NCBI GenBank assembly: GCA_044226625.1
Contig: JBGAGQ010000010.1
Coordinates: 32,001 to 96,000, forward strand
DNA: 64,000 nt
Source: Thermoanaerobaculia bacterium
GTDB taxonomy: Bacteria; Acidobacteriota; Thermoanaerobaculia; Multivoradales; UBA5704
Direction: 5' to 3'
Part shown: positions 423 to 56,029 of the stretch, in pieces
How positions within the stretch are numbered: position 1 is the first letter of the stretch
How the letters are laid out: every line of letters begins with the position of its first letter
Translations under genes and position numbers: made by a program
Notes under the pieces: model-generated
The model's database searches: none
What the model was told of the DNA's origin: nothing
What the model saw: only the letters and a program-made list of their open reading frames with translations

Positions 423-1922
423 ATGGCCGAAACCTCCGATCGTTTGGTCCAAAAACTCTGGAGCTACTGCCAGGTTCTGCGCGACGACGGCTTGTCGTAC
501 CAGGATTACCTGGAGCAGCTCACCTTCCTCCTCTTCCTGAAGATGGCCGACGAGCGGGAACGGCTGACCGGCGAAACGCAGCCGATCCCCAAAGGCTTCC
601 GTTGGAAAGACCTCGCGGCGCCGCGGATGGAAGGGGTCGCGCTCGAAGACCACTACCGGAAGACGCTCGCCCGGCTCGGGCGCGAAGGGGGGATGCTCGG
701 CCTGATCTTCCGCAAGGCGCAGAACAAGATCCAGGATCCCGCCAAGCTGCGCCGGCTGATCGTCGACCTGATCGGTCAGGACGACTGGCTCTCCATGACC
801 GCCGACGTCAAAGGCGACGCCTACGAGGGGCTGCTCGAACGAAACGCCCAGGACGTCAAAGGAGGGGCCGGCCAGTACTTCACACCGCGCCCGTTGATCG
901 ACGCGATCGTCGACTGCATCCAGCCGCGCCCGGGCGAAGTGATCGTCGATCCGGCTTGTGGCACCGGTGGATTTCTGCTCGCGGCTTACGGCTACGTCGC
1001 CGGAAACTACAGCCTCGACAAGAAGCAGAAGAGCCACCTGCGCTACGACGCGCTACGGGGCGTCGAGCTCGTCGACGGCGTCGCACGGCTGTGCGCGATG
1101 AACCTGCTCCTCCATGGCGTGGGGCCGACCGACGACGAGCGCGAGCCGCCGATTGCGATCGACGACGCCTTGCGGAACGAGCCCGAGGCGCACGCCGACG
1201 TCGTGCTCACCAACCCGCCGTTCGGCAAGAAGTCGAGCATCACCGTGATCAACGAGGAGGGGGACGCGGATCGCCAGTCTCTCGCCTACAACCGGCCCGA
1301 CTTCTGGACCACCACCTCGAACAAGCAGCTCAACTTCGTCCAGCACGTCAAATCGGTCTTGAAGATCCACGGACGCGCCGCGGTCGTGGTTCCCGACAAC
1401 GTGCTGTTCGAAGGGGGAGCGGGCGAGACCGTCCGCCGCCGGCTGCTCCACGACACGGAGCTCCACACCGTCCTGCGGCTGCCCACCGGTATCTTCTACG
1501 CGCAGGGGGTGAAGGCGAACGTCCTCTTCTTCGACCGCAAGCCGGGAAGCGACAAGCCTTGGACCCGCGAGGTCTGGTTCTACGACCTTCGGACCAACAA
1601 GCACTTCACGCTCAAGGAGCGGCGCCTCATCCGCGCCGATCTCGACGAGTTCGTCGCCTGCTTCAAGCCGGGCGAGCGCGCGAAGCGCAAGGCCACCTGG
1701 TCCGAAAAGAACCCCGAGGGGCGGTTCCGTCGCTACGGCTACGACGAGCTGATCCAGCGCGACAAGGTGAGCCTCGACCTCTTCTGGTTGCGCGACGAGA
1801 GCCTCGAAGACGCGGCGAACCTTCCCGACCCGCACCTCCTCGCCGCCGAGATCGCCGACGATCTGCGCGCCGCCTTGGAGCAGATCGAGGACGTTCTCGC
1901 CGACCTGCGCGCGCGGGCTTGA
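423..1922 (+). CDS. hsdM: Type I restriction-modification DNA methyltransferase subunit M (N6-adenine)
   Basis: 499 aa. N-terminal LVQKLWSYCQVLRDDG..YLEQLTFLLFLKM, GQYFTPR, DPACGTGGFL (motif I), NPPF (motif IV), LRLPTGIFYAQGVKAN. Confidence 0.95.
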   Translation: MAETSDRLVQKLWSYCQVLRDDGLSYQDYLEQLTFLLFLKMADERERLTGETQPIPKGFRWKDLAAPRMEGVALEDHYRKTLARLGREGGMLGLIFRKAQNKIQDPAKLRRLIVDLIGQDDWLSMTADVKGDAYEGLLERNAQDVKGGAGQYFTPRPLIDAIVDCIQPRPGEVIVDPACGTGGFLLAAYGYVAGNYSLDKKQKSHLRYDALRGVELVDGVARLCAMNLLLHGVGPTDDEREPPIAIDDALRNEPEAHADVVLTNPPFGKKSSITVINEEGDADRQSLAYNRPDFWTTTSNKQLNFVQHVKSVLKIHGRAAVVVPDNVLFEGGAGETVRRRLLHDTELHTVLRLPTGIFYAQGVKANVLFFDRKPGSDKPWTREVWFYDLRTNKHFTLKERRLIRADLDEFVACFKPGERAKRKATWSEKNPEGRFRRYGYDELIQRDKVSLDLFWLRDESLEDAANLPDPHLLAAEIADDLRAALEQIEDVLADLRARA

Positions 1923-2815: not shown

Positions 2816-4225
2816 TTAGGCCGCTTCGACGCCGGGCGATCCGGCCCCGACCTTCACGACGACGAACGTCAGGTCGTCGCGCTGGGGGGCGCCAGCCTGG
2901 AACTCTGAGAAGTCGGCGAGCAGAGCGTCGCGCACTGTCTCGGCCGAGACTCCGCGCGGTATTCGCGCGAGCGAGGCGGCGAGCCGATCGAGGCCATAGG
3001 GCTCGCCGTGTCGGTCTTCCCCTTCGTAGAGGCCGTCGGAATGGAGGAGGAGCAGGTCGTCCTCCTCGATCGTCACTTCGCGGGTGCCGAAGCGCGGGTC
3101 GAGCTGGGTGCCGAGCGGCAGCGAAGGCAGGTCGACCTCGTTCACCCCGGCGCGGCTCGCGTGGAGAATCGGCGGGTGGCCGGCGTTGGCGACGGTCGCG
3201 GTCCGTCGGGTTGGGTCGAGCACGACGATCGCGAGCGTCACGAGCTTGCGGCGTCGCGCGGTCTGCTGGACCATCGCGTTGAGCTTGCCGAGCACTTCGA
3301 GCGGTCGATCGAGCTCCGTGGCGAGGAGCGTGAGGCAGCTGCGGACACCCGCGAGCAGCAGGCCGCTCGCCATGCCGTGACCGGCGACGTCGCCCACGAC
3401 GATCGCGAGCTTTCCCCCTTCGAGCGGGAAGTAATCGTAATAGTCGCCTCCGACCTCGGTCGCCGGACACGACAGGCTGCAGATGTCGAGCCATCCTTGC
3501 GGGGGGCAGCCTTCCGGGAGCATCGCGAGCTGGATCTCGCGCGCGTAGTCGAGCTCCTGCCGCATGCGCAGCTGTTCCCGCGTGCTCGTCTGCGCCGCCG
3601 TGAACAGGCCGAGGATCTCGCGCCTTCGTCGCCGCGAAGCGGCGAGACCGACGATGAGCGCGAAGACCTGATTGCTCGAGACCGCGAAGAAGGTGGGCGT
3701 CGAATCGTCGGGGCTGCCGCCGAACGGCATGCCGAACACCGCCGCGACGAGAAGGCCGAGCACGACCGAGCCGTGGATCAGCAGGCGCTCGACCGGCCGT
3801 AGGCGGAACGGAGCCACCAGATAGCCGACGATGATCGTCAACGGAATCAGCGCGTCCAGGCCGAGCGTCGCCCCGAGCGTCGAAAGGAGGGCGACTTCGA
3901 GCAGGACCACGACCGAGGCCCGCGGCTGGCGGGCGATCAGCGCTCGCGCCGGCTCGACGATCCGGTCGGCACCTTCGGTCGGGGAACGGCGCAACCGCCA
4001 ACGCCGCAAGGCGAAGAACCAGACCAGGGCGAACAGGACGCTGGGCGCGGTGATCGCGAGGCGCTTCGGATCGCCGGTCGCCGCCGCGATCGTGCCGCCG
4101 ATCGCGGTGAGTCCGTAGAGGACGACGAACCACCGCGCTCGACTCAGGTTCGACGCGTCGAACCGACGGGCGACCGCCTGTTCGCCGGACAGCTCGGTCA
4201 ACTCGTCCAGGGTGAAGGGCTCCAC
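2816..4225 (-). CDS. Membrane-bound PP2C-family (SpoIIE/RsbU-like) Ser/Thr phosphatase
   Basis: N-terminal TM helices, AREIQLAMLP, VGGDYYD, GDVAGHG, HSDGLYE, DDLT motifs. Confidence 0.92.
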   Translation of the reverse strand: MEPFTLDELTELSGEQAVARRFDASNLSRARWFVVLYGLTAIGGTIAAATGDPKRLAITAPSVLFALVWFFALRRWRLRRSPTEGADRIVEPARALIARQPRASVVVLLEVALLSTLGATLGLDALIPLTIIVGYLVAPFRLRPVERLLIHGSVVLGLLVAAVFGMPFGGSPDDSTPTFFAVSSNQVFALIVGLAASRRRRREILGLFTAAQTSTREQLRMRQELDYAREIQLAMLPEGCPPQGWLDICSLSCPATEVGGDYYDYFPLEGGKLAIVVGDVAGHGMASGLLLAGVRSCLTLLATELDRPLEVLGKLNAMVQQTARRRKLVTLAIVVLDPTRRTATVANAGHPPILHASRAGVNEVDLPSLPLGTQLDPRFGTREVTIEEDDLLLLHSDGLYEGEDRHGEPYGLDRLAASLARIPRGVSAETVRDALLADFSEFQAGAPQRDDLTFVVVKVGAGSPGVEAA

Positions 4226-4391
4226 GCGGCTATCTTACCCGTGGCCTCCTTCCTCTCGGCCTTTCGACCTCGAGCGACCCCTCGGCGGACCGAAACGGAT
4301 AGGTCCGTCGACCTCCGCGGAAGCGAGAGCCGTGCTCAACGGGTACACTCTCGCGGCTGATCCAAACGGTCTATTTGAGGAGAGGGTTCCA

Positions 4392-47433: not shown

Positions 47434-49776
47434 ATGGAAACCCAAGTCCTCGGGGAGCGCGTCCCCAGAAACGAAGACGCCCGCCTGCTCTCCGGCCGCG
47501 CTCTGTTCATCGACGACCTCGACCTTCCCGGCATGGCGCACGTGGCGTTCCTGCGCAGCCCGCACGCGCACGCGCGGCTCCTCTCCGTCGACACGTCCCG
47601 CGCCAAGACGCGCCCGGGGGTCTTCGCGATTTACACCGCAGAAGACCTCGGCGACTACTGGCGCCCCGGGCCGCTGCTCGTGCCGCCGCCGCCCGTTCCC
47701 GGGATGACGTTTCACGAGCGCACCCAGGTGCCGCTCGCCAAGGGCAAGGTGCGCCAGACCGGCGAGCCGATCGCCGTCGTGGTCGCCGCCTCGCGCTATC
47801 TCGCCGAGGACGCGCTCGAAGAGATCGAGGTCGAGTACGAGCCGCTCCCCGCGGTGATCGATCTCGAACGCGCGCTCGAGCCCGGCTCGGCGCTCGTCCA
47901 CGAAGACGTGGGGACGAACATGGCCGCCCACGTGCCGCAGAAGAAAGGGGATTACGCGGCGGCGCGCGCCCAGGCGGACCTCGTCCTCTCGCGCCGCTTC
48001 TCCTACGACCGCGGGGCCTCGGCCGCGATCGAAAACCGCGGCGTGGTCGCCCAATGGGACGGCCGCGCCGAGCGCCTCACCGTCTGGGATACGACCCAAG
48101 CGCCGATCCCGATCCGCAACGGTCTCGCCGCGATGCTCGGCCTGTCCGAGCACCAGGTGCGCGTGGTGGCACCGTTCATCGGCGGCGGCTTCGGGCCGAA
48201 GATCATGATGTTCTATCCGGAGGAGGTCCTGATCCCCTGGATCGCAAAGCGGCTCGAACGGCCGATCAAGTGGATCGAGGACCGCGCCGAGAATTTCCTG
48301 GCGACGACCCAGGAGCGCCTGCAGATCCACGACGCCGAGATCGCGCTCTCGAAAGACGGCCGCATCCTCGGGGTCAAGGACTCGTTCCTTCATGACACGG
48401 GCGCCTACGATCCCTACGGACTCACCGTGCCGCTCAACAGCCAGTGCACGCTGATGGGGCCGTACGACATCCCGGCCTACGACAGCGAGTTCCGCGCCGT
48501 CTTCACCAACAAGCCGATCGTCACGCCGTACCGCGGCGCCGGCCGGCAGCACGGCGTGTTCGTCATCGAGCGCCTGCTCGATCTCGCCGCGCGCGAGCTG
48601 GGGATTTCCCCGATCGAGATCCGGCGGAAGAACTTCCTCACCCCCGACCAGTTTCCGCACGACCACGTGATCATCTATCAAGATTTCGCGCCGCTCTATT
48701 ACGACAGCGGCAACTATGCGCCGGTGCTCGACAAGGCGCTCGCGATGATCGGTTACGAAAGCTTTCGATCGGAAGAGCAGCCGCGCCTCCGCGCGGCGGG
48801 AAAGACCGCGGGGATCGGCGTCGTCGCTTACGTCGAGGGGACGGGGATCGGCCCGTTCGAAGGGTCGCGCGTCCAGGTGCAGACGAACGGCAAGGTGACC
48901 GTGGTCACCGGTGTCGGCACGCAGGGTCAAGGGCATTTCACCGTCCTCGCCCAGGTCGCGGCCGAGCAGCTGGGCGTTGCGGTCCGCGACATCGAGGTGG
49001 TAACGGGCGACACCGACCGCTTCCACTGGGGGACCGGCACGTTCGCGAGCCGTGGCGCGGTGGTCGCGGGTAACGCCGTCCACGAGGCGGCAAAAAAGGT
49101 GCGAGAGAAGGCGATCCGCCTCGCGGCCGAGAAACTCGGCGTCGAGGAGGCCGAGATCGAGCTCGCCGAAGGCAAGGTGCGCGTCGTCGCCGACCCGGGG
49201 CACTCGATGCCTCTTTCCGAGCTCGCCTCGCTCGCGAACCCCATGCGCGGAGCGGTCAAGCCCGGCGCCGAGCCGGGCCTCGAGGCGACCGCCTATTTCG
49301 GACCCTACCGCGGAGCCACCGCGAGCGGCGTCCACGCGATGATCGTCGAGGTCGATCCCGAGACGATGCAGATCGAGGTGAAGAAATACGTCGTGGTCCA
49401 CGACTGCGGCCGCGTGATCAATCCGCTCCTGGTCGACGGCCAAGTCCACGGCGGCGTGGCGCAGGGGATCGGCAACGCCTGGTACGAGCAGCTCGTCTTC
49501 GACGACAACGGCCAGCTCACCAACGCTTCGTTCATGGACTTTCTTCTTCCGACCGCCCTCGACGTCCCGCGCGTCGACGTCGGCCACGAGGAGACCGTCT
49601 CCCCCCTAAACGCCCTCGGCACGAAAGGCGCGGGAGAAGCAGGAACCATCCCCGTCGGCGCCCTCTTCGCCCAAGCTCTCGAAGACGCCCTCGCCATCCC
49701 CGGCCTCGAGATCAACGAGATCCCGTTGAAGCCGAGCCGGTTGTGGGAGCTGGCGGAGGGTGTGAAGGGGAAGTGA
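47434..49776 (+). CDS. Xanthine dehydrogenase-family molybdopterin-binding large subunit (CoxL/CutL-like)
   Basis: RSPHAHA, IGGGFGPK, PYRGAGR, QGQGH, GQVHGGVAQG, KGAGE. Confidence 0.92.
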   Translation: METQVLGERVPRNEDARLLSGRALFIDDLDLPGMAHVAFLRSPHAHARLLSVDTSRAKTRPGVFAIYTAEDLGDYWRPGPLLVPPPPVPGMTFHERTQVPLAKGKVRQTGEPIAVVVAASRYLAEDALEEIEVEYEPLPAVIDLERALEPGSALVHEDVGTNMAAHVPQKKGDYAAARAQADLVLSRRFSYDRGASAAIENRGVVAQWDGRAERLTVWDTTQAPIPIRNGLAAMLGLSEHQVRVVAPFIGGGFGPKIMMFYPEEVLIPWIAKRLERPIKWIEDRAENFLATTQERLQIHDAEIALSKDGRILGVKDSFLHDTGAYDPYGLTVPLNSQCTLMGPYDIPAYDSEFRAVFTNKPIVTPYRGAGRQHGVFVIERLLDLAARELGISPIEIRRKNFLTPDQFPHDHVIIYQDFAPLYYDSGNYAPVLDKALAMIGYESFRSEEQPRLRAAGKTAGIGVVAYVEGTGIGPFEGSRVQVQTNGKVTVVTGVGTQGQGHFTVLAQVAAEQLGVAVRDIEVVTGDTDRFHWGTGTFASRGAVVAGNAVHEAAKKVREKAIRLAAEKLGVEEAEIELAEGKVRVVADPGHSMPLSELASLANPMRGAVKPGAEPGLEATAYFGPYRGATASGVHAMIVEVDPETMQIEVKKYVVVHDCGRVINPLLVDGQVHGGVAQGIGNAWYEQLVFDDNGQLTNASFMDFLLPTALDVPRVDVGHEETVSPLNALGTKGAGEAGTIPVGALFAQALEDALAIPGLEINEIPLKPSRLWELAEGVKGK

Positions 49777-49836
49777 GCCGCCAAACGAGTTCGGCCGGAG
49801 GAGGTTTTCGGCAAGCGCGCTAGAATCGCCGACGCA

Positions 49837-50076
49837 ATGTTCGATCCGCAAAAGGCTTTCGAAACCCATCGCGGCGAGGTCGCTCGCCTCGTCGACAGCT
49901 ATCGCACGCGATGTCTCTGGTTTCTGCGAGAGGATTTCTACCCGACCAACGCCGAGGAGGCCGTCCGCGTCCTCTCGCAAATCGAGCGCAACGCCGACCT
50001 CGAAGGGTTCCGGCGCGCGGCCCGGCTTCGCTCATGGCTCTCACCGACTTCCAGCGCACCGTCTGCCGCCTCTTAG
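49837..50076 (+). CDS. Small protein, putative antitoxin partner of the downstream nucleotidyltransferase
   Basis: 79 aa (YRTRCLWFLREDFYP), overlapping the start of the toxin-like gene. Confidence 0.65.
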   Translation: MFDPQKAFETHRGEVARLVDSYRTRCLWFLREDFYPTNAEEAVRVLSQIERNADLEGFRRAARLRSWLSPTSSAPSAAS

Positions 50077-50846
50077 CGGCCCATCGCGTGGCGTCCGGGG
50101 AGAGCTACGTCGCGGGCGGGGTGGCGCTCAACGAATGGCTCGGCGCACCGCGGCTGTCGCGCGACGTGGACCTTTTCCACGATACGGAGAGCGCCGTCGA
50201 ACGGAGCTGGAACGAAGACCGTGCGCTCCTCGTCGAGTCGGGCTTCGCGGTCCTCCCAGTGCGGGAGCGTCCAGGGTTCGTCGAGGCGGAGGTCCAAAGG
50301 GGCGGCGCTTCGTTGCACCTCGAATGGGTACGCGACAGCAGTTTCCGCTTCTTCCCCCTCGTCGAGCATGCTGAGCTCGGCCTCACCCTCCACCCCTTCG
50401 ACCTCGCGACGAACAAGCTGCTCGCCCTGGTCGGGCGTCGCGAAGTCCGCGACTGGATCGACGTCCTCGAATGCCATGCGCGCTTGCAACATCTCGGCTA
50501 CCTCGCTTGGGCCGCCTGTGGCAAAGACCCCGGCTTCTCTCCGACGACACTCATCGAACACTCGGCGCGCGGCGGAAGGTTCACGGCGCCGGAGGTGGCA
50601 AGCCTCGCCTTCGTAGGGTCCGCTCCCGATCTCGGCTCCTTCTCCCGAGCGTGGCACGCGGCGATCGAAGAGGCCCGTCAACTGGTCGCCGTCCTGCCCG
50701 CGGCGGAAGCGGGAAACTGCGTCCTCGACGCCGAGGGGAAGCTTCTACGCGTCGGGCCCGTCGGCCTCCCGGCGGCCATCTCTCGTGGAGAGGTTCGATT
50801 CCACGCCGGTAGCATCCGGGGGGCTTTTCCGACGCTGATGGCGTAA
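50034..50846 (+). CDS. AbiEii/AbiGii-like nucleotidyltransferase toxin
   Basis: Start MALTDFQ at 50034. AGGVAL, RLSRDVDLF, NKLLAL..RREVRDWID motifs. Confidence 0.8.
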   Translation: MALTDFQRTVCRLLAAHRVASGESYVAGGVALNEWLGAPRLSRDVDLFHDTESAVERSWNEDRALLVESGFAVLPVRERPGFVEAEVQRGGASLHLEWVRDSSFRFFPLVEHAELGLTLHPFDLATNKLLALVGRREVRDWIDVLECHARLQHLGYLAWAACGKDPGFSPTTLIEHSARGGRFTAPEVASLAFVGSAPDLGSFSRAWHAAIEEARQLVAVLPAAEAGNCVLDAEGKLLRVGPVGLPAAISRGEVRFHAGSIRGAFPTLMA

Positions 50847-51004
50847 GACGACGACGTTGCGAACCTGGATCCCTGGGGCCGCTGACAGCTCGCCGGCGCT
50901 TCTGTCGAGCGAGGACCCAGCGAAACGTCTGCCGCCTCGTAGCGGCCGAAAAGGGCGCACCAAACACGCCTAAAGTGCGCTCAACCTTGAGCCTCTCGAA
51001 ACAC

Positions 51005-51086
51005 GGCTGGCGCCTTCCGGCGCCAGCCTTTGCTTCTACACCATGGAACACACTGTTTCAATCCGCGCCCCTCCGAGAGAGGCGGC
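51005..51086 (-). ncRNA. CRISPR-like mini-array (pseudo-repeat + 26-nt spacer + hairpin), putative CreA/CreR-type crRNA-like RNA
   Basis: Minus strand reads GCCGCCTCTCTCGGAGGGGCGCGGATTGAAAC (array repeat: GTCGCCCTCCGCGCGAGGGCGTGGATTGAAAC), then spacer AGTGTGTTCCATGGTGTAGAAGCAAA, then GGCTGGCGCC-GGAA-GGCGCCAGCC. Confidence 0.8.
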
Positions 51087-51089
51087 CAG

Positions 51090-51144
51090 TTCAGTGTATA
51101 CCACGGTCTAGGGGGTTGACTTTAGCTTTGGAGACGCCGAAAAT
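51090..51144 (+). promoter_or_regulatory. Putative promoter region with TTC-PAM-flanked target of the mini-array spacer
   Basis: TTC (51090-92) followed by AGTGTATACCACGGTCTAG (51093-51111). TTGACT (51116-21)-17 bp-GAAAAT on plus. TACACT -10-like box on minus, ~7 nt before the pseudo-repeat. Confidence 0.65.
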
Positions 51145-51272
51145 AAATCGGCCCCGGAGGAGGACGAGTCCTCTAGGGCCGCGGAGATTCAACCGGGCCG
51201 AGGTAGGCACCAGCTGAAATCGCACAGTAGCAGTGTACCTGCCGAGGTCCTTCCAATTCAAGGAGGAGCGCG

Positions 51273-51446
51273 GTGAAAAGGCCCGACTGGGTCGTCCGGC
51301 TGCTGGTGGAGTTGCTCCGTCCTCAACTTCCCCGAAGCTGGACATTCACCCTTGGGCTCCGACGGGCGGACCGTCGGAGCCCAGGTTCTCGCGTAAACGA
51401 CCTGATGCGAAATCAAATTCAACGGAATCATCCAGCCCTGGGTTGA
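51273..51446 (+). CDS. Small 57-aa ORF upstream of cas3 (candidate CRISPR-repressed toxin or leader)
   Basis: Strong SD AAGGAGGAG then GTG AAA AGG. Translation MKRPDWVVRLLVELLRPQLPRSWTFTLGL..PALG*. Internal 13-bp perfect hairpin at 51353-51383. The stop abuts the cas3 ATG in frame. Confidence 0.45.
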   Translation: MKRPDWVVRLLVELLRPQLPRSWTFTLGLRRADRRSPGSRVNDLMRNQIQRNHPALG

Positions 51447-53636
51447 ATGCTCGTAATGCGGCCAGGCAAGTTCTACTCCCATACCCTCCTCGGTCGCCCT
51501 CAATCGGAGTGGGAGCGACTCGAAGAGCACCTGGTTCAGGTAGCCGAGAAGGCGTCCGAGTTTGCCTCGGTATTTGGAGCCTCCGAATGGGGCCATCTTG
51601 CGGGGCTGTGGCACGACCTGGGGAAATACCGGAGATCCTTCCAGGAGTACCTCGATCGGACGGGAGCGGTCGGATTCGAGGCGACCCAAGAGCAAGCTGC
51701 GGGCCGAGTCGATCACTCGACGGCGGGGGCGCAGGTCGCCGTCGAGCGGCTCGGTCCCTTCGGGAAGGTACTCGCCTACGTGATCGCCGGGCATCACGCG
51801 GGCTTGCCGGACGGGCTCGGCGGACAGAGCTCCTTAGAAGCGAGACTTGCAAAAGCCGAGGTGATGGCCGACCTCGATCTGGCCGCGATACCGGGGGCGA
51901 TCCTGAACGCTTCATGCCCCGGGAGCCGGCCACCTTCCCGAAATGCCGAGGAAGCGCACCTTTGGGTGCGATTCCTGTTCTCCGCGCTCGTCGACGCGGA
52001 TTCCTTGGCGACCGAAGCGTTCGTCGATCCGGAAAAGTCGCGCCTCCGTTCAACTCATCCCGAACCCGGACCGCTCTTAGAGGTTCTCGAACGACATCTT
52101 TCGGCGAAGTTCGGTGAGCCACGGACGGAAGTTCAACGCATCCGTCGCGAGATTCTCAGAGCATGTATCGAAAACGCGCAGCTATCGCCGGGCGTCTTTT
52201 CGCTTACGGTTCCCACGGGGGGAGGAAAGACCCTCTCGTCGCTCGCGTTCGCTCTTCGCCACGCAAGCCTGCACGGCCAGCGGCGAGTGATCTACGCGAT
52301 TCCCTACACCAGCATCATCGAACAGACGGCCACGACCTTCCGCGAGATTTTCGGGGAGTGGGTCTTGGAGCACCATAGCAATCTGGATCCGGAGGACTCC
52401 TCGCGCGAGACCCTTCGGGGCACGTTGGCCGCAGAGAACTGGGACGCGCCGATCGTCGTCACCACCAACGTCCAGTTGTTCGAGTCCGTGTTTTCGGCGC
52501 GCAGGACCCGTTGCCGAAAGCTCCACCGCCTGGTCCGATCGGTGATCGTCCTCGACGAGGCCCAGCTCCTTCCTCCGGAGTTCCTCAAACCGATCCTTCA
52601 CGTCCTTCGCGGTCTGGTGCGCGACTACGGCGCCTCGGTAGTCATCTCGACCGCGACCCGGCCGGCGCTCGATCTCGGTGAAATTCGGGAGCTGGCATCC
52701 GATCCGGCGGATCTCGACCGACGACTCCGGCGGGTGCGCTACGAGTGGCCGAAATCGCGCGAACCGAGAACCTGGGACGAGATCGCCGACCGTCTGACGG
52801 CTCACTCGAGCGTCCTCTGCGTCGTCAACCGCCGCGACGACGCCCGGCAGTTGGTGGGCTTGTTGCCGGAGGACACGGTACATCTCTCGGCGCTGATGTG
52901 CGGAGCGCATCGCTCGGAGAAAATCGCCGAAATCAAACGGTGTTTGGCGGAACGCAGGCCTGTTCGGGTCGTCAGCACCCAGCTGGTCGAGGCCGGGGTC
53001 GATCTCGATTTTCCGGTGGTCTATCGCGCATTCGCCGGGCTGGACTCGATCGCGCAGGCCGCCGGACGCTGTAACCGCGAAGGTCGGCTGGATGGCCCTG
53101 GCCGAGTGGTTGTGTTTCACCCTCCCAAGGGCTCGCCACCCGGATTGCTCCGCAAGGCGGAGGACACCGCCGCGGAGTTGATCGGCGACCGCGCGCCGGA
53201 GTTCCTGGAGCCGGACCTGTTCACCCGCTATTTCGACCTCCTGTACCGAACCAAGGTCGACGATCTCGACAAGCACGGAATCTTGGACCTGTTGGGCAAG
53301 AACGCCCGTGCGCTCGACGTCCAGTTTCGCGAGGCGGGCGAGCGATTCCGACTGATCGAGGAATCGGGTTACCGGCCGGTCTTGGTCGCCTGGCGCGACG
53401 GCGCCGGTCTCCTCCGCGAATTTCGACGCCGAGAACCCGATCGGAGTCTGTTTCGGCGCGCACAGCGCTACGTCGTCACGTTGCCGCCGTGGCAGCTCGG
53501 AGCGCTCGAAAAGGCCGGGGCAGTTCGTGAGATCGCTCCCGGCTTCTTCGGTCAAGAACATTCGCTCCTGTACGACGAGAAGCTGGGGCTGCTTACGACC
53601 GTGCCCGAGTTTCGAGCTGAAGACCTGGTCGTATGA
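51447..53636 (+). CDS. cas3: CRISPR-associated HD nuclease/helicase Cas3
   Basis: EEHL, HDLGK, GHHAGL, LVDAD, PTGGGKT, DEAQ, STQLVEAGVD, QAAGRCNR. The start may be 51456. Confidence 0.97.
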   Translation: MLVMRPGKFYSHTLLGRPQSEWERLEEHLVQVAEKASEFASVFGASEWGHLAGLWHDLGKYRRSFQEYLDRTGAVGFEATQEQAAGRVDHSTAGAQVAVERLGPFGKVLAYVIAGHHAGLPDGLGGQSSLEARLAKAEVMADLDLAAIPGAILNASCPGSRPPSRNAEEAHLWVRFLFSALVDADSLATEAFVDPEKSRLRSTHPEPGPLLEVLERHLSAKFGEPRTEVQRIRREILRACIENAQLSPGVFSLTVPTGGGKTLSSLAFALRHASLHGQRRVIYAIPYTSIIEQTATTFREIFGEWVLEHHSNLDPEDSSRETLRGTLAAENWDAPIVVTTNVQLFESVFSARRTRCRKLHRLVRSVIVLDEAQLLPPEFLKPILHVLRGLVRDYGASVVISTATRPALDLGEIRELASDPADLDRRLRRVRYEWPKSREPRTWDEIADRLTAHSSVLCVVNRRDDARQLVGLLPEDTVHLSALMCGAHRSEKIAEIKRCLAERRPVRVVSTQLVEAGVDLDFPVVYRAFAGLDSIAQAAGRCNREGRLDGPGRVVVFHPPKGSPPGLLRKAEDTAAELIGDRAPEFLEPDLFTRYFDLLYRTKVDDLDKHGILDLLGKNARALDVQFREAGERFRLIEESGYRPVLVAWRDGAGLLREFRRREPDRSLFRRAQRYVVTLPPWQLGALEKAGAVREIAPGFFGQEHSLLYDEKLGLLTTVPEFRAEDLVV

Positions 53637-53663
53637 ACCGAGTGTCCGAACCAAGAAAGGACG

Positions 53664-54335
53664 GTGCGAATGCCTCTGCATTGTCTCGAAGTCTGGGGTG
53701 ACTTCGCCTGCTTTACCCGACCGGAGATGAAGGTGGAGCGCGTTAGCTATGACGTGATGACGCCCTCCGCCGCGCGTGCGATCTTCGAGGCGATCCTCTG
53801 GCGGCCCGCGATCCGGTGGCGCATCCATCGCATCGACGTGCTGCAGCCGATCCGCTGGCTTTCGTTTCGCCGCAACGAAGTCGGCGCCGTCGTGCCCGTC
53901 GGGAGCGTCAAGAGCGCGATGAAATCAGGGACCGGGTGCCTGGCCCTGAACGTCGAGGACGAACGACAGCAACGGGCTGGTCTCCTGCTGCGCGACGTGC
54001 GGTACCGGATCTCCGCCTCGTTCTCCATGACCGGCAAGGCGGGGCCTGCGGAGACTGAAGGGAAGTTCGCCGAGATGTTTCGGCGCCGGGCTCGGAAGGG
54101 GCAGACCTTCAACCAGCCCTACCTAGGGTGCCGCGAGTTCGCCTGCGGTTTTCGTTACGTCGAGGATCCGACCCGTGAACGCCCGCCCATTGAGGAGAGC
54201 CGACACCTCGGTTTGATGCTCTACGACCTCGATTTCTCCGACCCCGCCGAACCCAATCCCGCGTTCTTCGACGCCCGTTTGGGGCGCGGGACTCTGGAAG
54301 TCCCCGACTGGGAAAGCGCCGAGGTGCTGAGGTGA
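53664..54335 (+). CDS. cas5: Type I-C Cas5 (Cas5d)
   Basis: GDFACFTRPEMKVERVSYDVMTPSAAR, RRNEV, QPYLGCREF. Confidence 0.97.
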   Translation: MRMPLHCLEVWGDFACFTRPEMKVERVSYDVMTPSAARAIFEAILWRPAIRWRIHRIDVLQPIRWLSFRRNEVGAVVPVGSVKSAMKSGTGCLALNVEDERQQRAGLLLRDVRYRISASFSMTGKAGPAETEGKFAEMFRRRARKGQTFNQPYLGCREFACGFRYVEDPTRERPPIEESRHLGLMLYDLDFSDPAEPNPAFFDARLGRGTLEVPDWESAEVLR

Positions 54336-56029
54336 TCCTGCAGGCGCTCTGCGACTATTACAGGCGGAAATCGTCGGACGACGAGGCCGAGGTTGCCCCA
54401 CCAGGTTTTGAGCACAAGGAAATCCCCTTCGTTCTCGTGCTCGACCGAGAGGGGCGCCTGGTGCAAATCGACGACCTCCGGTCGCCCGACGGCAAAAGGG
54501 CCAAGAGACAACTGGTCCCCCAGGCGGTCAAACGCACGGTTGGCGTGTCGGCGAATCTCCTGTGGGACAGCCTCGAATACGCCCTCGGTTACGACTCGCG
54601 GGGCCGGGCGGAGAGGGTGGCCCGGCAGCACGCCGATTTCCGGCAACGAATCGATCGGCTTCCCGGCGATGACGAGGCGCTTGCCGCGGTCAAGATTTTC
54701 CTGGCGGGCGACCCTCTGGAAGAGACTCGGCGTGCGTCCCTGTGGCCCGAGCTCGCCGAGGGGAACCCCCTGGTGACCTTTCGACTCGCCGACGATCCCG
54801 AGCTCGTGTCGCAGCGGTCCGCCGTTCGAGGGCTGCTCACCGGCGGTGAGCCCCGCGAGGTCGAGGCCCGTTGCTCGATCACCGGTCGGCTCGACGCGAT
54901 TTCGCGGCTTCATCCTTCGATCAAGGGTGTTCGAGACGCCCAACCGACCGGCGCGAGCCTGGTTTCCTACAACGAGCCCGCTTTCCGTTCCTTCAACAAG
55001 GACCAGGGCGCGAACGCTCCCGTGGGTGAGGAGGCCGTGTTCGCTTACACGACCGCCTTGAATCACCTCTTGCGGCCGGGCTCGTCCCAACGAATCCAGC
55101 TGGGCGACGCGACGACCGTTTTCTGGTCCGAGAAGGCGAGCGGCGGCCTCGTCGAGCGGGCCTTCACGTCCTGGTTCGACCCCCCGCGTGACGATCCGGA
55201 CGCCAACGTCGAGAGCGTTCGCGCTCTCTACGAGTTTCAGCGCGGGCGACCCTTGACCGACGATGATCAGCAGCGCTTTTTCGTGCTTGGCTTGGCGCCG
55301 AACGCCGCGCGCCTGGCCGTTCGCTTTTGGCAGGTAGCGACCATTGCCGACTTGGGGCAGCGGATCTTCGAACATTTTTCCGCGCTCGAGATCGTCCTGC
55401 CTCCCAAGAGCCCTCGGTATCCCTCTCTTCCGCAACTACTCGCTTCGATCGCGGTCCAGGGCAAGCTCAAGAACGTTCCTCCTGGGCTTGCGGGCGATTG
55501 GCTCCGCTCGATCCTGTCCGGCTCGCCGTACCCGCACACTTTGCTCGAAGCGGCGATCCGCCGTTGCCGTGCCGAACAGGCCGTGACCCCCTCCCGCGCC
55601 GCGCTGATCAAGGCATCACTCATTCGATCGTCCCACCAACGAAAGGAGAATCTCGCCGTGTCGCTCGACCTGAGCAATGTGAATCCCGGGTACCGGCTCG
55701 GGCGGTTGTTCGCCGTGTTCGAAAAGCTCCAGGAGGACGCTCAGCCAGGAATCAACGCGACGATCCGCGACCGCTACTTTGCCTCGGCTTCCAGCAATCC
55801 GCTGGTTGCGTTTTCGACCCTCAATCGATTGAAGAACCACCACCTGGCGAAACTCTCGAATCGGGGTCTCGCGGTCGTCCGCGAAAAACTGATCGGCGAG
55901 ATCATGTCCGGAATCGATGCCAAGGATCCCTTTCCCGCGCGGTTGTCGCTCGCGGACCAGGGCCGCTTCGCCGTCGGCTACTACCACCAACGCCAAGCAT
56001 TTTTCGAGAAGCAAGGAGGCAACGACTAA
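54332..56029 (+). CDS. cas8c: Type I-C Cas8c (Csd1)
   Basis: [40 protein letters not shown]. Confidence 0.96.

Follow-up and report, generated by a model that had tools for sequence, protein, structure and literature searches.

We examined positions 51145-51446 of a 64-kb window of Thermoanaerobaculia DNA (the window is the whole stretch analysed, and all coordinates at this locus refer to it), which lie between a promoter-like site and cas3, the first gene of a type I-C CRISPR-Cas operon. Judged from its sequence, and with a probability of about one half, this stretch is the long structured 5' leader of cas3, held under autorepression of the CreR type and possibly equipped with an upstream open reading frame (uORF) and an attenuator hairpin. 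The first-pass annotation of the same DNA had proposed either the toxin half of an addiction module protecting the cas locus or a leader coupling cas3 translation. The leader is compatible with the features seen and is the better fitting of these two readings; the toxin found no support, as the stretch has neither paired stalling codons nor a mini open reading frame (mini-ORF) and shows neither conservation nor a coding signal.

A probable crRNA-like RNA directed at the promoter upstream of cas3

Just upstream of cas3, the minus strand carries a solitary degenerate CRISPR repeat (psi-R1, 51055-51086) that aligns with the repeat of the main array and retains its 5'-handle. The handle GGATTGAAAC is exact at 51055-51064, its one exact copy outside the array, and 10 of the 11 handle bases equal those of the array repeat. 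Rfam gives this repeat a weak CRISPR-DR9 match (17.6 bits, below the gathering score); the scan of 50500-51700 returned three weak matches only, all far below gathering scores. The repeat is followed on the same strand by a pseudo-spacer of 26 nucleotides (nt), psi-S (AGTGTGTTCCATGGTGTAGAAGCAAA..., 51029-51054, read from 51054 downward), and by a GC-rich, terminator-like hairpin of 10 base pairs (bp) at 51005-51028, GGCTGGCGCC-(4 nt)-GGCGCCAGCC, which we propose to be the 3' hairpin (the psi-R2 equivalent) or the terminator of a CRISPR RNA-like (crRNA-like) RNA. Read on the plus strand, the same hairpin is also terminator-like, with the tail TTTGCTTC.

The pseudo-spacer partially matches a plus-strand site at 51093 that is flanked by TTC, the protospacer-adjacent motif (PAM; 51090-51092), three bases past the repeat; PAM and protospacer-like target together occupy 51090-51126. 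Over the first 24 positions, 15 of the 20 positions other than every sixth one match, and position 6 is mismatched. None of 5000 shuffled spacers equalled this match within 1400 nt, and the target is the best TTC-flanked match to psi-S in the 6.6-Mb genome (13/15, with 11/15 at the next seven sites). A 34-nt protospacer (51093-51126) would overlap the -35 element (51116-51121) of a sigma-70-like promoter, TTGACT-17 nt-GAAAAT (51116-51144, plus strand). This promoter is a consensus match only; it is the sole promoter-like site on either strand of 50700-51600, where shuffled sequences lead one to expect 0.1. Transcription from it would start near 51151. The first-pass claim that a crRNA-like RNA targets this promoter is upheld by the PAM-flanked match over the -35 element, by the shuffles and by the genome-wide rank of the site. 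It is thus strongly supported by the sequence that an RNA from the minus-strand mini-array (51005-51086) aims at the promoter before cas3, and this promoter is probably repressed by the CRISPR system itself.

By eye, TGGTATACA at 51096-51104 on the minus strand, which falls within the target shortly before the degenerate repeat, resembles an extended -10 element, on which the consensus scan is silent. If it is one, the crRNA-like RNA may repress its own promoter too.

The leader RNA is rich in predicted hairpins

The leader spans approximately 295-300 nt between the promoter and cas3, and its predicted fold as a whole (51150-51460) is more stable than that of any of 100 shuffled sequences (z -5.35). 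Hairpin H1 (51149-51181, plus strand, as are all hairpins of the leader) pairs GGAGGA with UCCUCU at the predicted 5' end of the transcript (-21.9 kcal/mol, z -3.5). The first-pass annotation had described a structured 5' region with a second stem further down; H1 bears this out, and the second stem (51199-51241) is no more stable than expected by chance (z -1.3; 25 of 200 shuffles as stable). Hairpin H3 (51241-51275; -16 kcal/mol, z -2.8) buries the Shine-Dalgarno (SD) sequence and the GTG start of the reading frame described below: the SD core GGAGGA (51262-51267) and the GU of GUG are predicted to pair with UCCUUC at 51248-51253, leaving the core with a probability of 0.01-0.16 of being unpaired. 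Hairpin H4 (51292-51345; -24.1 kcal/mol, z -3.2) lies inside the frame.

The most conspicuous element is hairpin H5 (51353-51383), a perfect 13-bp stem with a 5-nt loop that reaches 15 pairs with its extension (51351-51385). Its fold (-33.1 kcal/mol, z -6.8) and its membership in a class of just 58 hairpins in the 6.6-Mb genome (stem of at least 13, loop of 3-8) place it beyond chance. Most perfect hairpins of this class (41 of 58) lie outside genes, many with T-rich tails, and H5 resembles these; its own tail (GGTTCTCG), with T at only 3 of 8 bases, does not pass the terminator scan. We regard H5 as a candidate attenuator or RNA-stabiliser. Beyond it the RNA is predicted to be unstructured up to the cas3 start (51386-51446, plus strand; for 51386-51470, z +0.56 and 143 of 200 shuffles as stable), and no SD precedes the ATG at 51447 or the one at 51456.

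Homology searches with the leader gave little. In the genomes of 60 relatives its DNA had no match beyond repeat-like ones and a single 39-nt hairpin match; blastn of 50850-51460 against plasmids and phages found no match, the exact-arm pattern of H5 was absent from viral contigs (0 hits), and the leader and its frame matched only themselves in their own genome. A tRNA scan of 49000-52000 was negative. The single 39-nt match includes H1, with 87% identity to an intergenic hairpin in genome G056 (L003) that lies just past a stop codon, between convergent genes. With the T-run TTTATTTT (51141-51150), H1 also makes a good terminator-like site on the minus strand.

An SD-preceded reading frame ends at the cas3 start codon

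The SD sequence AAGGAGGAG (51260-51268) is followed 4 nt on by a GTG at 51273, which opens an orphan frame of 57 codons in the reading frame of cas3 (51273-51446, plus strand; the uORF candidate). Its TGA (51444-51446) directly touches the cas3 ATG at 51447, and its codons 2-4 read AAA AGG CCC. The SD, the GTG-AAA-AGG opening, the 57-codon frame, its junction with cas3 and the 13-bp hairpin had all been reported in the first pass, and all are present. The accompanying description of the SD as very strong holds for the sequence; in the predicted fold, its core and the start codon are paired, as described above. AAGGAGG occurs 1016 times in the genome (both strands), 259 times with a start codon 3-10 nt downstream, which by simple arithmetic from the genome counts gives a chance of roughly 0.6% per 300-nt stretch. 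The shorter word GGAGGA has 7581 copies. Similarly, the assertion that the frame opens with rare codons stands in part: AGG makes up 4% of Arg codons (3.7 per mille), but AGA, ATA and TTA are rarer, AAA accounts for 20% of Lys codons (4.6 per mille), and tRNA-Arg(CCT) is encoded by two genes.

The composition of the frame is unlike that of its neighbours. GC content at third codon positions (GC3) is 0.60 versus 0.75-0.80 in the cas genes, a value as low as in 36 of 1581 equal-sized in-frame windows of neighbouring cas genes. The first 15 codons have a GC3 of 0.93 and the last 42 one of 0.48 (4 of 1641 windows as low). The length of the frame is unremarkable in this DNA of 68% GC, where 58 ORFs of at least 40 amino acids overlap the 7-kb stretch 49000-56000. 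The predicted peptide has 11 Arg among its 57 residues, a net charge of +8 and no hydrophobic or membrane segment (maximal 19-residue hydropathy 0.44). It had been credited with an amphipathic N-terminus, a property that dissolves on comparison with shuffled peptides, 526 of 2000 of which match its maximal helical moment. AlphaFold, run on the single sequence, returned a low-confidence model (predicted local distance difference test, pLDDT, 65; predicted template modelling score, pTM, 0.29), and ESM Atlas gave no usable match, with a recognition of 1477, under the language-model level typical of real families.

No homologue of the frame was found at any level. Pfam and PADLOC have no family match for it; tblastn found nothing in 55 related cas3 loci or in its own genome; 598 pattern matches in metagenome contigs yielded no confirmed case, and 1.84 billion protein representatives contain no true homologue. 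Two matches among the latter are artefacts, produced by tandem-repeat proteins matched in 6-7 short stretches. Traits of CreP-like or type I membrane toxins were also missing (no family, no hydrophobic helix), a comparison of traits that involved no CreP sequence directly. Taken together, coding statistics, absent homologues and peptide traits argue against a selected peptide; the same evidence is compatible with an upstream frame that would be translated with indifference to its sequence.

Three other coding possibilities in this region were rejected. Selenocysteine read-through of the TGA into cas3 is contradicted by the unstructured RNA past the TGA and by Cas3 relatives, which begin at the same place. 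The genome bin encodes 61 tRNAs, among them tRNA-SeC (anticodon TCA), so that TGA can stand for selenocysteine in some of its genes, which is irrelevant to the TGA before cas3. A minus-strand protein gene at 51345-51091 shows flat GC content across codon positions (0.61/0.56/0.59) and no family match, and the overlapping +1 frame at 51233-52117 is a shadow frame of cas3.

Four related type I-C loci share the mini-array arrangement

We compared 55 related cas3 loci (L021-L024, L026-L056 and L057-L076). The closest Cas3 relatives are about 50% identical; genome contigs supplied four loci (at most 52%) and metagenome contigs two. Four of the 55 (L034, L035, L043 and L045), all from the window's own family of genomes, share the window's arrangement, a hairpin and a handle with 26-28 nt between them, which diverges from cas3. 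In each, a PAM-flanked site matches the pseudo-spacer partially, again with a mismatch at position 6: 13/15 in L034 and L035 (reached by 0 of 2000 shuffles in both), 11/15 in L043 (14 of 2000) and 10/15 in L045 (112 of 2000). In these loci the target abuts the cas3 start, and a mere 74-103 nt lie between the handle and cas3; it is thus cas3 itself that is regulated there, and the conserved logic is a crRNA-like guide on the cas3 upstream region, without an intervening element. No second pseudo-spacer target adjoining the cas3 ATG, as in these relatives, was found in the window. In L034 the single promoter-like site faces the mini-array and overlaps the PAM. Full arrays lie upstream of cas3 in L071 and L075, and no mini-array or array was found within the flanks examined of the remaining loci.

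The conservation check suggested in the first pass turned out negative: the SD, the frame and the hairpin were each absent from all 55 loci, which is a weak test with the nearest Cas3 only about 50% identical. Because the relatives are too distant for a fair comparison, missing conservation lowers the toxin reading and any functional claim only moderately.

Two further arrangements were observed among the related loci. In L034, L035, L043 and L045 a HicA toxin gene directly follows the mini-array on the mini-array strand (the hicA observation is placed at 3822-4384, plus strand, in L034 and at 842-1295, minus strand, in L045, and also covers L035, L043 and L040). Pfam, run on L034 and L045, identified HicA (1e-9 and 1e-15) followed by a HicB-like or UPF0150 gene. 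The promoter-like site of L034 that overlaps PAM and target also faces hicA. From this vicinity and overlap, hicAB may be a Cascade-supervised toxin-antitoxin pair in the mini-array relatives; the window has no hicA. In L022, a Nitrospirae genome bin (2151-2300), an exact GGATTGAAAC lies on the cas3 strand about 850 nt upstream of cas3, and 12 bases beginning 9 nt past it return as an inverted copy about 100 nt downstream, beside an AT-rich box. This element may be another kind of solitary repeat unit.

Comparison with known CRISPR-regulated systems

Repression of promoters by type I-C Cascade with crRNA-like RNAs that have an 11-nt handle and a 3' hairpin has been described (10.1101/2024.12.27.630466). 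Liu et al. (10.1101/2023.03.10.532045) describe creA-like or CreR elements beside cas promoters, often toxin-free, as common, and note them for type I-C. Mini-arrays are listed for 7% of 1206 I-C loci in Table 1 of Shmakov et al. (PMC10120712). Reported cases of crRNA-like repression include cas promoters in types I-B, I-E and V-A, and Nezha and Gabija in type I-C. The window shares with these elements a degenerate repeat with a conserved 5' handle, a 3' hairpin, a site just upstream of the first cas gene, and a partial, PAM-flanked pseudo-spacer match (position 6 mismatched) adjoining the cas promoter, here a consensus promoter. It differs in the hairpin-rich leader of about 295 nt with an SD-preceded frame that is placed between target and cas3.

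The toxic RNAs of the CreT type offer a second comparison. Haloarchaeal CreT (type I-B of H. hispanica and H. hubeiense) requires a strong SD with an AUG or GUG start, then two minor codons in succession and, past the mini-ORF, a stem-loop (PMC8501985). The type I-F CreT of P. aeruginosa has an SD, a 15-nt mini-ORF that opens with ATG AAA and contains two proline codons in a row, and a GC hairpin with a stabilising role (10.64898/2026.06.02.729485), and that of Acinetobacter (type I-F) has an SD and a 33-bp mini-ORF with its start codon in a short stem, and lies divergent from creA and downstream of the target (PMC10097628). The frame studied here likewise diverges from the crRNA-like gene and lies downstream of the target; it has a canonical SD and a start codon, a stable GC-rich hairpin follows, and the second codon of the frame is AAA, as in the mini-ORF of P. 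aeruginosa. Its predicted burial of SD and start has some precedent in Acinetobacter CreT, which tolerates a start inside a stem (PMC10097628). In contrast, the paired codons that follow the start in CreT genes (AGA AGA, AUA AUA or two prolines) are replaced by AAA AGG CCC; instead of 5-11 codons closed before the hairpin there are 57, with H4 and H5 inside the frame and H5 only 78 nt past the start. Moreover, the element occurs in no related locus and, instead of forming a small gene of its own, runs on into cas3.

A third comparison is with leader peptides and upstream ORFs whose translation is coupled to the expression of the gene behind them, through attenuation or through termination-reinitiation at adjacent stop and start codons. 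Like the window, such systems have a short frame that carries its own SD and is poorly conserved, hairpins that ribosomes can open, and a stop touching the next start. Here, a regulatory codon run, a demonstrated antiterminator pairing and a U-rich terminator tail are missing, and the downstream start is unstructured. In mRNAs of type I toxin-antitoxin (hok-like) systems, a small frame stands behind a heavily folded 5' region that hides its SD. The small frame and the folding over the SD are common to both; the peptide encoded here is Arg-rich and has no hydrophobic helix, and the promoter scan found no antisense promoter.

Proposed regulation and alternative explanations

In the leader reading, Cascade with the mini-array RNA would occupy 51090-51126 and block the promoter. 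When Cascade or its guide is scarce, transcription would proceed from near 51151 into cas3, and the leader would fold into H1, H3, H4 and H5, with H3 hiding the SD and GTG of the upstream frame as a second layer of control. If this frame is translated, ribosomes would melt H4 and H5 and terminate at the TGA, directly beside the cas3 ATG, which would favour cas3 expression. If it is not, H5 would form and dampen cas3; it may attenuate transcription, for which its tail is weak, or shape RNA stability. The peptide itself would have no function.

Several observations weigh against this account. The four mini-array relatives manage without such a leader, and consensus scans detected a cas3-directed promoter in none of them, so that target and promoter are there equated only by inference. 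In the window, the AT-run taken as the -10 element also supplies, on the minus strand, the T-tail to a good terminator-like hairpin, so that the promoter may have been called wrongly. As the cas3 start already lies in open RNA, coupling to the upstream frame is unneeded. The leader occurs in no other genome searched, and neither covariation nor conservation backs any function. Finally, use of SD sequences in this genome is weak (AAGGAGG stands before an ORF of at least 100 amino acids in 15% of cases, control words in 7-8%); a mere spacer would hence not be expected to contain an SD-GTG pair at ideal spacing, a pair that fits a CreT-like element equally well.

We consider it doubtful that the stretch is a neutral spacer or remnant, namely leftover DNA that is transcribed and has no further regulatory role, as would result if a rearrangement had moved the module of mini-array, target and promoter away from cas3. 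The SD-like word would then be no more than a hairpin arm, and H1 and H5 would be old terminators. Such an origin suits a stretch with non-coding composition and without a homologue in any search, relatives in which the target lies directly at the cas3 start, the likeness of H1 to the G056 hairpin, the mostly intergenic position of the perfect hairpins of this genome and the frequency of GGAGGA. It would, however, have to stack independently unlikely features within 300 nt, i.e. the stability of the whole fold, the rare class of H5, the ideal SD-GTG spacing and the contact of the stop codon with the cas3 ATG. A strong hairpin that separates cas3 from the only promoter detected would, moreover, come at a cost unless it had a role. 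Very improbable, in our view, is an independent non-toxic small RNA of about 240 nt that would end at H5 and act in trans or titrate a factor, leaving cas3 to read-through or an undetected promoter. H5 does resemble local terminators, H1 and H3 are two GGAGGA/UCCUYY hairpins, and nothing else in Rfam fits; but H5 fails as a terminator in the scan, which also showed no second promoter before cas3, and no relatives of the RNA were found in the 60 genomes or the 55 loci.

A CRISPR-repressed toxin, either a CreT-like small RNA (SD, start, early slow codons, stabilising H5) or a toxic Arg-rich peptide, would reveal itself by growth arrest on loss or inhibition of Cascade or the mini-array. That the stretch encodes one appears unlikely to us, although some weight stays with a CreT-like RNA because published bacterial CreT genes have the same layout (PMC10097628; 10.64898/2026.06.02.729485) and the known CreT RNAs are diverse. 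[quoted passage not shown] The SD-GTG pair and H5 are rarer than chance, AGG is a minor codon, and, since H5 resembles the extragenic perfect hairpins, many of them T-tailed, a discrete RNA of about 240 nt is conceivable. Against this stand the lack of two consecutive identical minor or proline codons, an AGG that is not the rarest codon and is served by two tRNA-Arg(CCT) genes, a frame that runs through H4 and H5 unlike the mini-ORFs closed before the hairpin, and an SD and start that are predicted to be paired. Nor do the other comparisons favour a toxin: conservation is absent from the related loci, the relatives' genomes and the metagenome contigs, the protein matches are artefacts, the peptide has no membrane segment, special amphipathicity or confident fold, and a toxin would not fit on the cas3 side of the mini-array in the four relatives that have one. 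Distinctly unlikely as well is a new kind of CRISPR-guarding type I-C element, with a toxic RNA of the CreT type or a killer frame gated by translation inside the cas3 leader; a single Cascade-repressed promoter would then yield Cas3 together with the toxin, which the SD-hiding hairpin would silence until a trigger opened the hairpin.

If the stretch is indeed a cas3 leader under autorepression, it adds a further natural case of a CRISPR system that holds down its own nuclease gene by means of a crRNA-like guide, and a type I-C case with an unusual second layer of RNA structure, which is of modest interest. The window locus and the four related loci form a concrete set for I-C self-regulation. 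Were the toxin reading true, addiction modules of the CreTA type would extend to type I-C, with the toxin on the same transcript as cas3; the occurrence of such modules beyond the studied subtypes is posed as an open question in a review (PMC12737573).

Genomic context

The window comes from an uncultured genome bin of 6.6 Mb and contains a complete type I-C CRISPR-Cas locus on its plus strand. cas3 (51447-53636) encodes an HD nuclease and helicase with HD, DEAD and Cas3 C-terminal domains, and is followed by cas5c, cas8c (Csd1, a full-length match), cas7, cas4 and cas1. The CRISPR array begins at about 60570 with the repeat GTCGCCCTCCGCGCGAGGGCGTGGATTGAAAC. Its repeats 1-8 are identical with a period of 65-68 nt; from about 61100 to the end of the window (64000) single-base deletions and substitutions are frequent in the repeats and the spacing is irregular. 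This could be real decay of the distal array or an artefact of assembling repetitive DNA in a genome bin.

Upstream of cas3 and convergent with the mini-array lies a gene for an AbiEii-like nucleotidyltransferase toxin (49911-50846; Pfam 7e-8). Between it and cas3 there are about 600 nt of non-coding DNA, which contain the studied stretch. A gene for a molybdopterin-dependent dehydrogenase ends at 49776.

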